Below the pieces are notes generated by a model. That model did no database searches and was not told the DNA's origin. It was given only the letters and a program-made list of their open reading frames with translations. 64,000 nucleotides of DNA from an uncultured Gammaproteobacteria bacterium (GTDB taxonomy: Bacteria; Patescibacteriota; Microgenomatia; UBA10105; UBA927), in NCBI GenBank assembly GCA_964448085.1, contig CAYUUX010000001.1, forward strand, positions 22,465 to 86,464, in the 5' to 3' direction. Position numbers and translations under genes: made by a program. Of the stretch, positions 3,526 through 41,317 are shown piece after piece (position 1 is the first letter of the stretch; each line of letters starts with the position of its first letter).

Positions 3526-4671
3526 TTACTGGACGTGTAAATAGAAACTTACAATACCATCTTCGTGCTCGATATACTTAATCTTGATGATGCTACTTCC
3601 ACCACATGCCTGACTGGATGAATACATGGTTCCATCGCGAGGCGCACGGATAACACTCGTGCTTCTTCCAACCATGTCAACCCCCGTATGTATTCCTCCG
3701 CTGTACGTATAGCGCCATGACCAAGGGGTTTTGCCAAATCGTTGCGTTACAATGATATCCCCGTCAAGCGGCCAATCCCACGAGCCTGTACCTATTCTAT
3801 TATTCCCTCCGACTTGATCATCATATACGTCTTTCCCTACAAGATATTCCTCCGCGTTTACCCAGGAACCGTTTTTTCGAATTTCAAAATGCAAATGCGC
3901 TCCCGTAGAACAGCCGGGGTAACCAGTGTTTCCAACCAACGCGATAGGATCTCCTTTTTTCACTGGTCCAACCTTGACAGAATTGATGAGTGCCGAATCA
4001 ATGGCCTGTCTTTCCGCAAGCGCCTGCGCAAGTAATTGCTGATACACGGCTTCACTACTTCTTGTCTGTGCCAAAAACGATTCTTTTTGCTTTTTCTGTT
4101 GGTCAAGACTTCTCATTTCTGCTTCTAATTGCAGTTTGAGCGCCTCTTGTTGCGCACGCTTTTTCTCACGCAGGTCTTTGCGTTCCGCAAAGTTATTCTG
4201 CGTTGCCTTCAACTGAAAAAGCAACTGTGCATCCTCTTCCTGCACGCGATTAATATATTTAACGCGAGATATGAAATCCGATATGTTACCGCTTAAAAAA
4301 ATCGTCCCGAAAGAAGGAACCACTGTCCTCTTGTATGATTCAGGAATTCTATGCAACACCAATTCGGACCTTTTGGTAAGCATAACCTCAAGACGCTCGA
4401 TTTCATTTGCCAGTTCTTCGATTTCAAGAGACAGCTTTGCTATTTGCGAACGGATTGTCTGCGCTTTGAGCGTCGTCAATTCAATGTTGGAGTTGATGAT
4501 GCTTATTTGTTTGGAAAGGGAATTTTCCTGACTTTGCAGTTCCGCAATTTTTGCCTGCAATTGCGAAATGGTGTTCGTGATGGCTGTCGTCGTATCCTGT
4601 GCATAAACCGTGGTTGACACCACCACAAAAAAACTCAGGCAGAAACAGAAATAGCTGATAATACGGTTCAT
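3526..4671 (-). CDS. M23 family metallopeptidase with N-terminal coiled coil (EnvC/PcsB-like FtsEX partner)
   Basis: Signal/TM MNRIISYFCFCLSFFVVVSTTVYA, about 200 aa heptad-like coiled coil (LQAKIAELQSQENSL...), C-terminal LytM/M23 motifs GDPIALVGNTGYPGCSTGAHLHFEIRKNG. Immediately downstream of ftsE-ftsX. Confidence 0.8.
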   Translation of the reverse strand: MNRIISYFCFCLSFFVVVSTTVYAQDTTTAITNTISQLQAKIAELQSQENSLSKQISIINSNIELTTLKAQTIRSQIAKLSLEIEELANEIERLEVMLTKRSELVLHRIPESYKRTVVPSFGTIFLSGNISDFISRVKYINRVQEEDAQLLFQLKATQNNFAERKDLREKKRAQQEALKLQLEAEMRSLDQQKKQKESFLAQTRSSEAVYQQLLAQALAERQAIDSALINSVKVGPVKKGDPIALVGNTGYPGCSTGAHLHFEIRKNGSWVNAEEYLVGKDVYDDQVGGNNRIGTGSWDWPLDGDIIVTQRFGKTPWSWRYTYSGGIHTGVDMVGRSTSVIRAPRDGTMYSSSQACGGSSIIKIKYIEHEDGIVSFYLHVQ

Positions 4672-10421: not shown

Positions 10422-10456
10422 ACAAAAAACCCGAGGTGCTCCCCGGGTATTTTTGT
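10422..10456. terminator. bidirectional intrinsic terminator between ruvB (+) and the convergent minus-strand gene
   Basis: CACAAAAAA-CCCGAGG-TGCT-CCCCGGG-TATTTTTGTG: 7 bp GC-rich stem (one A.C mismatch), tetraloop, flanked by A-run and T-run. Confidence 0.55.
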
Positions 10457-20070: not shown

Positions 20071-21524
20071 TGTTGTTCTGGTCGAAGCGTCGGGAATAAT
20101 ATAACGTCTTTGATAGATTTTTGATCTTCCAGAATTGTGAGCAGTCTATCTATTCCCATGCCCCATCCTGCAGTTGGCGGCATTCCATATTCAAGCGCTC
20201 GGATATAATCCGCATCATACGATTCAAATTCTTTCTGACCACGCTTGCCGAGTTCCTCGGATTCATGCCACCGTTTTGCCTGATCCTGCGGATCATTTAA
20301 TTCGTTATATGCATTCAAAAGCTCTTCTCCAACAACGAGCAATTGAAAAGAAGCGGTAAACCGCGGATCCTCAGGAAGACGTTTTGCAAGTGACACGAAT
20401 GCTGTTGGACGGTTTGTCAAAAACAACGGATCGACAAGCTTTGGACGCACTGTTGCTTTATACATTGTGTCCAAAAGCGCTCCGTAGCCGATTGCATCCG
20501 ACGTATCAACTTTGATCCCTTTCTCCTGCATCGCAGCTTTTAGTTTTTTTTCATCGTCCGCAATTGCTATGTCAATTCCCGTATGTTGTAAAACCGCATC
20601 GCGGTAGGTAACACGCGGCCAGGGAGGCGTAAAATCCAGTTCTTTCCCTTGATAGGAGATTTTCGTGGTTCCCTTTATTTCTTTTATGAGACCGCTCAAC
20701 ATCTTTTCCGTATAATTCATGAGATCTTCATACGTTGCATATGCCCAATAAAATTCAAGCATGGTAAATTCAGGATTATGTTGCTTGCTCATCCCTTCAT
20801 TTCTGAAGTCTTTGCCAATCTCGTATACTTTCTCAAAACCGCCCACGATCAGTCGCTTCAAATAGAGCTCTACTGCAATACGCAGATATAAATCCGTATC
20901 CAATGCATGATGGTGAGTAATAAACGGCTTTGCGGATGCACCACCGTACAATGGTTGCAATACCGGTGTCTCCACCTCCATAAACCCCTCTTTATCTAAG
21001 AAAGCACGAAGATAGGATATTACTTTGGTTCGTGTTTCGAAGACCTTTCGCACGTCCTTATTCATCACCAGGTCCACATACCGCTGACGATACCGCTCTT
21101 CAATATCGGTTAATCCATGCCACTGATCCGGAAGCGGACGAATAGCCTTGGAAAGGATCGTCATCGTTTTGGCAAAAACGGATATCTCTCCTGCTTGTGT
21201 TTTTCCCACATCTCCCGTGACTTTAACAAAGTCTCCCATGTCTAAAAGCTCTATGAGCGAGAAAGATAGTTCTTCCATCACATCTGCTTTACAAACTATC
21301 TGCATCTTATCTGTCCTATCGGCAATATCCATGAAAAATATCTTTCCGTGTCCGCGAATAGCCATGATGCGTCCGGCGATGGCAACCGTTTTCCCATCTT
21401 TCTTCTTTGCTTCCGTGATAAGATCCCTTTCTCCTGCCTCTGCAGGATATGAGAGAATACCTTTCTTGGTAAGCTTTTCCAGCTTTTCTATTCTTGTTTT
21501 TCTCAGTTCATCGAGTGTTGGCAT
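20067..21524 (-). CDS. lysS: lysine--tRNA ligase (class II)
   Basis: N-terminal OB anticodon-binding domain, class II motifs FRNEGMSKQHNPEFTMLEFY, GMGIDRL; 485 aa. Confidence 0.95.
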   Translation of the reverse strand: MPTLDELRKTRIEKLEKLTKKGILSYPAEAGERDLITEAKKKDGKTVAIAGRIMAIRGHGKIFFMDIADRTDKMQIVCKADVMEELSFSLIELLDMGDFVKVTGDVGKTQAGEISVFAKTMTILSKAIRPLPDQWHGLTDIEERYRQRYVDLVMNKDVRKVFETRTKVISYLRAFLDKEGFMEVETPVLQPLYGGASAKPFITHHHALDTDLYLRIAVELYLKRLIVGGFEKVYEIGKDFRNEGMSKQHNPEFTMLEFYWAYATYEDLMNYTEKMLSGLIKEIKGTTKISYQGKELDFTPPWPRVTYRDAVLQHTGIDIAIADDEKKLKAAMQEKGIKVDTSDAIGYGALLDTMYKATVRPKLVDPLFLTNRPTAFVSLAKRLPEDPRFTASFQLLVVGEELLNAYNELNDPQDQAKRWHESEELGKRGQKEFESYDADYIRALEYGMPPTAGWGMGIDRLLTILEDQKSIKDVILFPTLRPEQQ

Positions 21525-21540
21525 ATACTCCTATTATATA

Positions 21541-21575
21541 CAAAAACCCCGCTTCAGAAAGCGGGGTATTTTTTA
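21541..21575. terminator. intrinsic terminator after greA (bidirectional hairpin)
   Basis: CAAAAA-CCCCGC-TTCAGAAA-GCGGGG-TATTTTTTAT; on the minus strand reads CCCCGCTTTCTGAAGCGGGG + TTTTTG right after the greA stop. Confidence 0.7.
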
Positions 21576-21584
21576 TATTTCCAT

Positions 21585-22040
21585 TTATTCAATTGATAAT
21601 ATCTTGTAGACAATCTTCCCCGCCGGCGCCTCAACTTCAACTGTCTCTCCCGCTTTTTTACCCAAAAGCGCTTTTCCGAGCGGAGACGAATGGGAGATCT
21701 TTTTATTCATAGGATCCGCTTCCCATTCACCGACAAGAGAATATACATCTTTCTTTCCGTTAATATGAAGCGTTACTTTCGATCCGACATCAACGTGACT
21801 TTTTGTATGATTTGTCACAACTTTTGCGCCATGCAGAATTTCTTCAAGCTCTGCGATGCGACCATCTATAAAAGACAAATCCTGTTTTGCAGCGGCATAT
21901 TCACTGTTTTCCGATAAATCTCCGTTATCACGGGCATCAGAAAGCCTCTGCACCGCTGCTGGACGCTTGGTCTTCAACAAATCCTCGTGCTCAAGACGAA
22001 GCTCTTCCAGTCCTTCTTTGGTAAGTAATTGTCTATCCAT
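21585..22040 (-). CDS. greA: transcription elongation factor GreA
   Basis: N-terminal coiled coil with acidic tip GDLSENSEY, C-terminal FKBP-like domain; 151 aa. Confidence 0.9.
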   Translation of the reverse strand: MDRQLLTKEGLEELRLEHEDLLKTKRPAAVQRLSDARDNGDLSENSEYAAAKQDLSFIDGRIAELEEILHGAKVVTNHTKSHVDVGSKVTLHINGKKDVYSLVGEWEADPMNKKISHSSPLGKALLGKKAGETVEVEAPAGKIVYKILSIE

Positions 22041-40412: not shown

Positions 40413-40682
40413 TTAAGAACCAGTCCATTCTGACGGACGATACCAATCATTCGGATCATCTCCGCCAATCTGTCTTTTCCCTAATCCATGACACATGTCA
40501 CACTCGCCCGTGTATTTATATAATCCGAAGCCGTGACATACATTGCAGTCACTTTTACAGAGATAATTTCCGTTCATGTTCATACTATGAGGACACGGTA
40601 CGTATTCATCATCAAAATACCCATATCCTTGACAGACTTCGCACGTCTCCCAATGATAATTCTGATAATTCTCTTTACTCAT
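40413..40682 (-). CDS. small Cys-rich protein with three DnaJ-type CxxCxGxG zinc-finger repeats
   Basis: CEVCQGYG, CNVCHGFG, CDMCHGLG repeats plus extra Cys/His; good RBS (AAAAGGAGCAAT-ATG); 9 nt upstream of the enolase-superfamily gene. Confidence 0.6.
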   Translation of the reverse strand: MSKENYQNYHWETCEVCQGYGYFDDEYVPCPHSMNMNGNYLCKSDCNVCHGFGLYKYTGECDMCHGLGKRQIGGDDPNDWYRPSEWTGS

Positions 40683-40836
40683 ATTGCTCCTTTTAAAAAT
40701 GTGTTTTATACCATAAAAAAGCCCTCCTTACGGAGGGTTTTCGTGAAGCTATGTATGGTTTTACTTAGGCACGCAAAAGTCCCCCCGTCTGAACGGGCAT
40801 CATAAAGTATTTATGAAAGGACTTTTGCACCATATG
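40683..40836 (-). ncRNA. structured 5' leader (riboswitch/attenuator-like): three-way junction plus terminator/antiterminator, class unassigned
   Basis: Minus-strand transcript from the predicted TSS contains 10 bp P1 (GCAAAAGUCC/GGACUUUUGC, plus 40773-40782/40819-40828) enclosing two hairpins (CAUAAA-UAC-UUUAUG and CCCGU-UCAG-ACGGG), then intrinsic terminator CCCUCC-GUAA-GGAGGG + UUUUUU (plus 40715-40738), then RBS and ATG. ACGGGGGG just 3' of the junction can alternatively pair with the terminator 5' arm CCCUCCGU (antiterminator). Confidence 0.5.
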
Positions 40837-40842
40837 AGAGAC

Positions 40843-40871
40843 ATAGTACAACGAAACGGAGTTCCAGTCAA
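40843..40871 (-). promoter_or_regulatory. sigma70 promoter for the leader/operon (TTGACT-17-TACTAT)
   Basis: Minus strand: TTGACT (plus 40866-40871), 17 nt spacer, TACTAT (plus 40843-40848). Confidence 0.5.
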
Positions 40872-40915
40872 ATGATCGTTTTCAGATATTTTTCAGAAGA
40901 TTCATGGTATGATGC

Positions 40916-41317
40916 ATGTACATGAAAAAAGAAATATACCTTTCCGTTACCGTAGCTGTTGTTCTTATAGCGGGAGTGCTTCTTTTTACGAAACGATCTT
41001 CCATACCCTCACCTTCAACGTCTGTACCAGTTTCCCAGGAGCCGATAGGCACGCAAACAACGACAAAAGAAGTTTCCCAAATTACCACCGCTGCGGTTTC
41101 ATCCCACAGCAGCGCTTCCAATTGCTGGATCATTCTCCAAAATAAAGCATATAACGTTACTACCTATCTCAGCCAACATCCGGGTGGAAGCGAGACCATA
41201 ATCCCGTATTGCGGTAAAGACGCAACGACAGCATTTAATACAATCAAAGACGGACGTGGTCATTCACCAAAGGCAATGGAAAATGCGTCACAATATTATG
41301 TTGGAGACGTGCTATAG
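40916..41317 (+). CDS. cytochrome b5-like heme-binding domain protein, membrane-anchored
   Basis: N-terminal TM; C-terminal TTYLSQHPGGSETIIPYCGKDATTAFNTIKDGRGHSPKA = cyt b5 fold signature (HPGG, second axial His region). Confidence 0.7.
   Translation: MYMKKEIYLSVTVAVVLIAGVLLFTKRSSIPSPSTSVPVSQEPIGTQTTTKEVSQITTAAVSSHSSASNCWIILQNKAYNVTTYLSQHPGGSETIIPYCGKDATTAFNTIKDGRGHSPKAMENASQYYVGDVL

Follow-up and report, generated by a model that had tools for sequence, protein, structure and literature searches.

In Escherichia coli, the thrS-infC-rpmI-rplT-pheMST cluster carries the pheM attenuator of pheST between rplT and pheS. Attenuation of pheST is mentioned in PMC1262725, and leader-peptide attenuators of the leaderless kind are represented by the poly-Cys upstream open reading frames (ORFs) of mycobacteria (10.1101/834739) and by examples from Corynebacterium (PMC3890552) and Deinococcus deserti (PMC4007540). 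The leader analyzed here lies on the minus strand of a 64,000-nucleotide stretch of contig CAYUUX010000001.1 (the window), upstream of an operon that encodes a small zinc finger (ZnF) protein, a racemase of the NSAR/OSBS family (NSAR), and an M20 deacylase. Its structure is real and regulatory and is of a known attenuator kind, with the mode of action of the classical attenuators of trp, phe, and pheST, and we read it, with a probability of about 0.72, as a ribosome-mediated (leader-peptide) transcription attenuator of the ZnF-NSAR-M20 operon. The transcript is probably leaderless or nearly so, judging from the distance between promoter and start codon.

Related leaders recovered from other loci make the comparison with pheM direct. 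Like pheM, they combine a short Phe-rich leader peptide with an intrinsic terminator and a four-segment alternative pairing, and in loci L091, L131, L176, and L185 the leader directly follows rplT and stands ahead of pheS-pheT. Unlike at pheM, NSAR and M20 intervene in the relatives between leader and pheST, and pheST is missing altogether from the window operon; the ORF is 22 codons long, as opposed to 14 in pheM; most copies have leaderless-type promoter spacing and no Shine-Dalgarno (SD) sequence; and in the window copy Tyr-Phe-Met-Met takes the place of the Phe run and two helices, P1 and P2, are added. With the actinobacterial and Deinococcus leaderless attenuators the family shares an SD-less short ORF at or next to the predicted transcription start and a presumed control of the operon by amino acid supply. 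It differs from them in that the named relatives belong to the Patescibacteria, in that the codon blocks are Phe, Ile, or mixed, and in that the leaderless start is deduced from the spacing between the -10 hexamer and the ATG.

Coordinates of the leader and operon parts refer to the minus strand of the window unless a strand is given. The promoter proposed in the preliminary description is present, with a -35 box TTGACT (40871-40866) and a -10 box TACTAT (40848-40843) separated by a 17-nt spacer and matching the consensus at 9 of 12 positions. The match is not significant alone (7 promoter-like sites in 4.5 kb versus 10.6 expected); similar promoters precede homologous leader ORFs. Transcription is predicted from the -10 box to start at about 40836-40833, 0 to 3 nt before an ATG (40833-40831) whose A is separated from the -10 hexamer by 9 nt. 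That ATG opens a 22-codon ORF, MVQKSFHKYFMMPVQTGGLLRA (40833-40765; stop TAA, 40767-40765), which reads ATG GTG CAA AAG TCC TTT CAT AAA TAC TTT ATG ATG CCC GTT CAG ACG GGG GGA CTT TTG CGT GCC TAA. The leader had previously been called untranslated, and this conserved predicted ORF had been missed. It has no SD sequence upstream, and it spans P1, P2, P3, and the G-run of the antiterminator. Codons 9 to 12, UAC UUU AUG AUG (Tyr-Phe-Met-Met, 40809-40798), align with the Phe run of relatives, which carry FFFF, FSFM, VSFF, or FFFFF at this position, and are the putative sensing codons.

The three-way junction noted earlier is in the sequence and is reproduced by RNAfold. Its closing helix P1 has 10 bp, formed by GCAAAAGUCC (40828-40819, codons 2 to 5) and GGACUUUUGC (40782-40773), and encloses two hairpins, P2 (CAUAAA-UAC-UUUAUG, 40815-40801, codons 7 to 11) and P3 (CCCGU-UCAG-ACGGG, 40797-40784). 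P3, the 1:2 hairpin in attenuator terms and the putative anti-antiterminator, begins at the first codon after the sensing block. The antiterminator strand, segment 2, is ACGGGGGG (40788-40781, codons 16 to 18) and shares two G residues with the 3' arm of P1; segment 3, CCCUCCGU (40737-40730), is the 5' arm of the terminator plus GU. The terminator hairpin CCCUCC-GUAA-GGAGGG (40737-40722, -11.1 kcal/mol) is followed, after one C, by a U6 tract (40720-40715), and it stands, as described before, upstream of the SD sequence and the ATG of the ZnF gene. In the minimum free energy (MFE) fold, UAUGGU (40834-40829, which holds the leader ATG) also pairs with ACCAUA (40757-40752, 3' of the leader stop); this pairing adds 6 bp to P1 and would make the 5' AUG inaccessible as soon as the leader is complete.

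The MFE structure of junction plus terminator reaches -47 kcal/mol (z = -4.76), with 0 of 200 dinucleotide shuffles as stable, and the part from the ATG to the terminator gives a fold z of -4.83. Clean intrinsic terminators are scarce in the window, at about three in 64 kb. Segments ACGGGGGG and CCCUCCGU pair at 8 of 8 positions with one G.U, as had been claimed, and the duplex of -13.4 kcal/mol compares with a shuffle mean of -7.0 (p = 0.014). Anti-antiterminator, antiterminator, and terminator exclude one another, and these results support the proposal that the element is a cis-acting attenuator of the ZnF-NSAR-M20 operon. The window leader contains these parts of a leader-peptide attenuator: a short ORF, a terminator before the structural genes, a 2:3 pairing that excludes 3:4, and a 1:2 hairpin whose 5' strand would fall within the footprint of a stalled ribosome. 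The cluster of regulatory codons consists of 3 to 6 Phe or 4 to 5 Ile codons in relatives; the window block, Tyr-Phe-Met-Met, is without statistical enrichment. When the architecture was defined as an ATG 4 to 10 nt past the -10 box, an ORF of 13 to 25 codons, and an ORF end 10 to 45 nt before the terminator, it arose in 2.2% of shuffles and, together with a correctly placed antiterminator, in 0.04%.

From these parts we propose the following course of events. Transcription from TTGACT-17-TACTAT would start at the AUG or no more than about 3 nt from it, a ribosome would initiate on the 5' AUG, and it would translate the 22-codon MVQKSFHKYFMMPVQTGGLLRA as the polymerase advances. A stall at codons 9 to 12 would cover the 5' arm of P1, P2, and CCCGU: with the A site at codons 10 to 12 and a reach of about 12 nt, CCCGU (ORF nt 37-41) is covered and ACGGGGGG (nt 46-53) is free. 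The freed strand could then pair with the emerging CCCUCCGU, no terminator would form, and polymerase would read through into ZnF-NSAR-M20. A transcript truncated by masking its first 48 nt does fold into the ACGGGGGG/CCCUCCGU helix, at -15.1 kcal/mol. With the ribosome at the stop codon, or with no ribosome, P3 would form together with the lineage-specific P1 and P2, and the G-run would be locked, so that CCCUCC could pair with GGAGGG and transcription would end at the U6 tract. We favor the view that P1 and P2 strengthen this off state, as an addition specific to the lineage. In this scheme a shortage of charged tRNA for hydrophobic or aromatic residues would induce the operon, in keeping with enzymes that liberate L-amino acids from their N-succinylated D/L forms. 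Which amino acid the window copy would sense through Tyr-Phe-Met-Met is uncertain; the block could give multivalent hydrophobic amino acid sensing, which would suit the NSAR/M20 pair, or it could be a weakened sensor.

The evidence that this architecture is maintained comes from homologous leaders. Because the ZnF protein is nearly an orphan and the contigs that carry its gene have identical leaders, the NSAR gene was used as the handle for finding relatives. Scans of genomes and metagenomes for NSAR gave mostly matches of 43 to 56% identity (from Bacilli and Acidobacteria, for example), with no leader among the matches listed, and the useful relatives came from exact-protein look-ups and a few metagenome loci. 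Also among the matches listed, NSAR relatives at 50 to 60% identity are metagenomic, and the named ones belong to "Patescibacteria group bacterium," Gottesmanbacteria, Woesebacteria, and Levyibacteriota. In several relatives, the region upstream of NSAR contains a short ORF and, after it, an intrinsic terminator. The leader peptides of the Phe type are MNNTSIYSFFFFTTLTRGTFGF in L176 (22 codons, SFFFFTT), MMIQRFFMFSFMTTHMRGMLDC in L131 (22 codons, FFMFSFM), MTNLRSSSVSFFTPFTSGAFVA in L091 (22 codons, SFFTPF), MILHNMYSFFWFTSS in L095 (15 codons, FFWF), and MKLNYSHFVFFTS in L185 (13 codons, FVFF); L128 has MIQSCKIIMLVIVTP (2605-2704, 15 codons), of the Ile(/Val) type with KIIMLVIV. The gene order rplT-leader-NSAR-M20-pheS(-pheT) is found in L091 (1-7107), L131 (2377-6330), L176 (153-3784), and L185 (1341-6158), and thrS, infC, and rpmI precede rplT where these contigs reach them. 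Neither pheS nor rplT is present in the window.

A scan of all loci for short ATG-initiated ORFs in which 3 or more of 5 codons specify Phe, with a terminator after them, added further leaders, all on the gene strand, before an aminotransferase, an MFS transporter, or unknown genes. L080 encodes MNVTRRKEFFFFFFLANRGASV (4081-4193, 22 codons, FFFFFF) ahead of a protein without a Pfam match, and L096 encodes MKKNKLHKFFFFFNPYFGGVMF (4087-4205, 22 codons, FFFFF; also found in L097) ahead of a class I/II aminotransferase. Phe-run leaders in L097 (1203-1325; a second site in this locus has 24 codons), L183 (5235-5356, 24 codons), and L092 (6716-6845, 25 codons) precede proteins without a Pfam match, and that in L181 (4758-4874, 19 codons) precedes a gene for 54 amino acids and then an MFS transporter. 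As a strand control, 1 Mb of loci was searched with a stricter terminator cutoff, and Phe-rich ORFs followed by a terminator numbered 14 on the gene strand versus 2 on the opposite strand. Two leaders of the Ile type were also found, MSKQVGQIIIAIIASPKGGLLR in L107 (5150-5272, 22 codons, QIIIAII), before a LeuA/CimA-like gene, and MSKFRGQIIREIIIASPAGGFLR in L121 (2449-2573, IIREIII), which has no LeuA/CimA-like gene downstream on its contig. They have a common promoter, TTGACA-17-TAGGAT, with the ATG 7 nt later, and their 3' part, GGGGGGUCUUUUGCGG, is almost that of the window, GGGGGGACUUUUGCGU, with ...GGLLR as the peptide tail in both. Judged by these sequences, the leader family seems to swap its codon block between Phe and Ile.

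A second conserved genomic context for NSAR was seen in L092, L181, L183, and two longer P0025 contigs, where a class I/II aminotransferase and a family-less protein of about 300 amino acids share an operon with NSAR. In L092 and L181, the gene after NSAR is M20. A gene for a pyridoxal-dependent decarboxylase is found on one side or the other, and tyrS is just upstream in L092.

The relatives share a plan consisting of a promoter-proximal ATG, an ORF of 13 to 25 codons, a Phe or Ile block, and a hairpin right after the block whose G-run can alternatively pair with the 5' arm of the terminator. Six of them (L176, L131, L091, L080, L096, and L107) have ORFs of 22 codons, as in the window, and the leaders of the window, L176, L131, and L091 align without gaps from ATG to TAA, both codons being among 31 invariant columns. 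Phe makes up 18% of residues in the seven leaders found without a Phe criterion, that is, located only via terminators upstream of NSAR, compared with a 4.2% share in the long ORFs of these loci (p = 1e-8). In all of the 13 leaders compared, the antiterminator duplex beats dinucleotide shuffles (p 0.002-0.036) and the antiterminator segment can alternatively close, as 3' arm, a local hairpin that begins 0 to 6 nt past the codon block; an equivalent of window P3 is also present in the L107 and L121 folds. The pairing segment sits at codons 16 to 20 in leaders of the 22-codon type and just past the stop in those of 13 to 15 codons. Antiterminator and terminator covary between loci, with the pairs ACGGGGGG/CCCUCCGU, GCGGGG/CCCCGC, GGCGGGGU/ACCCCGCC, GGAGGU/ACCUCC, and GGGGAG/CUCCCC. 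In 7 of the 13 leaders, a promoter matching at least 8 of 12 consensus positions ends at a distance of 4 to 10 nt from the start codon, versus 4.3% of ATGs in the loci (p = 4e-7), and 12 of the 13 are without an SD sequence. Alignment with MAFFT and RNAalifold recovered only 4 terminator pairs from nine leaders; loop lengths differ and hairpins fall out of register, and per-sequence folding was used for this reason.

An independent trans-acting small RNA of about 120 nt, running from promoter to terminator, would have its own promoter and a strong terminator, as this element does, and small RNAs that derive from attenuators and have functions in trans are known, rnTrpL being an example (PMC6614838). 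In all relatives, however, the element lies directly upstream of amino-acid-related genes on the same strand, and a role in trans would add to attenuation and not replace it. We hold a stand-alone small RNA gene to be extremely improbable.

Profile searches connect the window to these relatives. When 11 relatives, but not the window, were made into an nhmmer profile, the best window match was at 40806-40716(-) (E = 4.9e-6), and the runner-up was a generic terminator (E = 0.034); with a nine-sequence profile, the leader was recovered at E = 2.8e-4. A covariance model, R1, built from nine related leaders without the window, ranked the window leader first over its full length (26.1 bits) and also picked up the Ile-type leaders. 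The second R1 match in the window, at 21446-21573 (+), is an ordinary terminator between two minus-strand genes. The hairpin there, ACCCCGC...GCGGGGU (21546-21567), separates the stop of one of these codirectional genes, at 21585, from the start of the next, at 21524, and, with ACCCGGGG...CCUCGGGU at 10429-10448, makes up the other clean terminators of the window; both are perfect and bidirectional.

At the gathering score, Rfam returned only two tRNAs from the whole window. A permissive scan of 40600-40950 gave insignificant matches only, and the statement that the minus-strand leader belongs to no known riboswitch class held, since no riboswitch family appeared even at E <= 10. A T-box leader was considered and rejected, there being no RF00230 match in the Rfam scans and the leader being only about 120 nt long. 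In the permissive scan the enterobacterial Phe_leader family (RF01859, pheL-pheA) matched the window at 18.2 bits (E = 1.3), second behind a plus-strand match to STnc370, and aligned on the leader ATG and the terminator; no other family of this general kind was among the insignificant matches. The score is under the gathering score of 55 bits, and the window leader is therefore not a member of RF01859. L131 and L176 gave end-to-end matches to the same family (46.9 and 40.1 bits, with E = 6e-5 over 35 kb and E = 0.002, respectively) and align with it at the ATG, at the Phe codons followed by ACC, and at the terminator. The downstream genes and the phylum differ from those of RF01859 and all scores are below the gathering score; the likeness is probably a convergent design plus poly-U and terminator composition.

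The preliminary description had proposed a riboswitch or new structured-RNA class, in which the junction would be an aptamer, a ligand would stabilize P1 to P3, sequester the G-run, and cause termination, and the ORF would be incidental. The compactness and great stability of the junction (fold z = -4.8 versus shuffles) would suit such a reading, as would the fact that no known RNA family claims it, and it resembles three-way-junction riboswitches (purine, TPP, guanidine, and other classes) in placing a junction before a terminator with an exclusive antiterminator. Unlike those riboswitches, it has no Rfam riboswitch match, and P1 and P2 are absent from the homologous leaders. In L176, L131, and L091, about 47% of P1 cells can pair in the ungapped alignment, which is roughly chance; L176 and L131 have no contiguous helix at P1, and L091 forms a separate long-range helix in another register. 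Conservation of the junction in orthologous leaders thus fails for P1 and P2, which are not kept, and holds in kind for P3 and the antiterminator, and it is the frame, start, stop, and length of the ORF that are preserved. The junction strands are 0 to 3 nt long, without conserved unpaired nucleotides for a pocket, and the relatives have plain Phe or Ile codon runs and resemble the Rfam Phe_leader. We regard a metabolite-binding riboswitch as very unlikely.

Protein-mediated attenuation would replace the ligand with an RNA-binding protein, for example, the ZnF protein of the operon as an autoregulator that binds the junction and favors termination. Leaders with such autoregulatory logic exist for ribosomal-protein operons (PMC4538822), and at this locus the lineage-specific P1 and P2 co-occur with a lineage-specific ZnF gene. 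That co-occurrence is seen in a single lineage, a protein-mediated switch leaves the conserved ORF architecture unexplained, and a CxxCxGxG DnaJ-type zinc finger, for which the Pfam match is weak, is not known to bind RNA. This explanation appears highly improbable. The ZnF gene (40682-40413, 89 amino acids, three CxxCxGxG motifs, with a weak Pfam match to the DnaJ-type zinc finger) is the first gene of the operon and has an SD sequence, GGAG (40690-40687), 24 nt past the U6 tract. The protein is almost an orphan: a search of 5.8 billion sequences returned 0 homologues, and matches among 1.8 billion representatives were limited to one protein of 91 amino acids (49% identity) and two long multirepeat proteins (783 and 729 amino acids, 31 to 32% identity). 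Relatives have no gene between leader and NSAR, and the ZnF gene therefore looks like a recent insertion.

It is also conceivable that an ancestral Phe/Ile attenuator was rebuilt and that the junction itself now senses a metabolite or the ZnF protein. The changes behind this idea are that the codon run is gone, that P1 and P2 wrap the 1:2 hairpin into a junction, and that the ZnF gene was added. We consider such a rebuilt sensor quite unlikely; if it were real, it would be a riboswitch or protein-responsive switch caught in the course of evolving from a leader-peptide attenuator.

Several observations weigh against a leader-peptide attenuator that is active in the window. No residue is overrepresented in the window peptide, with 2 Phe (2/21, p = 0.22), 1 Tyr, and 2 Met, and the mixed Tyr-Phe-Met-Met block means that amino acid sensing may be weaker, different, or possibly lost in this copy. 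The 9-nt gap between the -10 hexamer and the ATG implies a 5' extension of 1 to 3 nt or else a start site unusually far from the promoter. This locus occurs on 17 contigs; leaders are identical in the 10 that were retrieved by their shared ZnF gene, and within the lineage there is therefore no covariation. The strong 10-bp P1 is lineage specific, and the attenuation model tolerates P1 without requiring it. Finally, the support from R1 is marginal (E of about 0.05, 3 bits over a generic terminator).

The first of these points also bears on the possibility that the window copy is a relic, in which the codon run has been lost and what is left is a constitutive or translation-coupled partial terminator without specific amino acid sensing. 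Such decay would agree with the absence of residue enrichment, with an operon no longer linked to pheST, and with a ZnF gene that has its own SD sequence and is inserted between terminator and NSAR, a putative two-codon remnant ORF following the U-tract. Yet the copy retains its ATG, 22-codon length, stop position, 1:2 hairpin, and 8-bp antiterminator, which decay would not give, and P1 even strengthens the off state. In the E. coli trp leader, two adjacent regulatory codons suffice. We consider a relic unlikely and retain the reading of the window leader as a ribosome-mediated attenuator.

The two-codon ORF, AUG GUA UAA (40714-40706), begins right after the U-tract, and the GGAGG arm of the terminator sits at SD distance from its AUG. 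An AUG placed in the same way opens the regulated gene in L080, L095, and L181, so that at those loci the SD sequence may additionally be masked by the terminator hairpin. By this comparison, the window mini-ORF may be what is left of such a gene start.

Downstream of the ZnF gene lie the NSAR gene (40404-39286), an enolase-superfamily racemase of the NSAR/OSBS family that scores 355 bits against TIGR01928 (cutoff, 201), and then the gene for an M20 ArgE/DapE-type deacylase (39331-38219). The NSAR-M20 pair is kept in relatives. NSAR/OSBS enzymes that adjoin such deacylases belong to a pathway that converts D- to L-amino acids, and several of them prefer hydrophobic side chains (PMC12006748).

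Upstream, the neighbor of the leader is a divergent plus-strand gene for a cytochrome-b5-domain protein (40916-41317 (+), 133 amino acids), so no gene on the minus strand needs the terminator, which agrees with the earlier statement on this point. The hairpin was also considered as the terminator of an upstream gene and rejected in that role, since greA, the closest gene of this strand on the upstream side, ends about 850 nt from it. Some public gene calls place a minus-strand ORF of 83 amino acids at 40882-41133 instead of the cytochrome-b5 gene at 40916-41317 (+). That ORF lies inside the plus-strand gene, whose Pfam match (E = 1e-19) favors the plus strand.

Full-text searches of a literature library found no paper that deals with leader peptides or transcription attenuation in bacteria of the Patescibacteria/Candidate Phyla Radiation, and for "leaderless" in Patescibacteria they gave an incidental mention only. 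For the search for new regulatory RNAs, the locus is a warning that a stable junction with a terminator and antiterminator can mimic a new riboswitch when a tiny unannotated ORF is the sensor. For these organisms, the loci suggest that Patescibacteria/Candidate Phyla Radiation bacteria apparently use classical attenuation, probably in leaderless form and with Phe and Ile blocks that are interchangeable. The NSAR/OSBS enzymes of such loci are routinely annotated as "o-succinylbenzoate synthase." Their coregulation, together with M20, with pheST behind Phe-codon leaders suggests that NSAR and M20 serve Phe supply, providing phenylalanine or other hydrophobic L-amino acids that may be salvaged from N-acylated D/L-amino acids.

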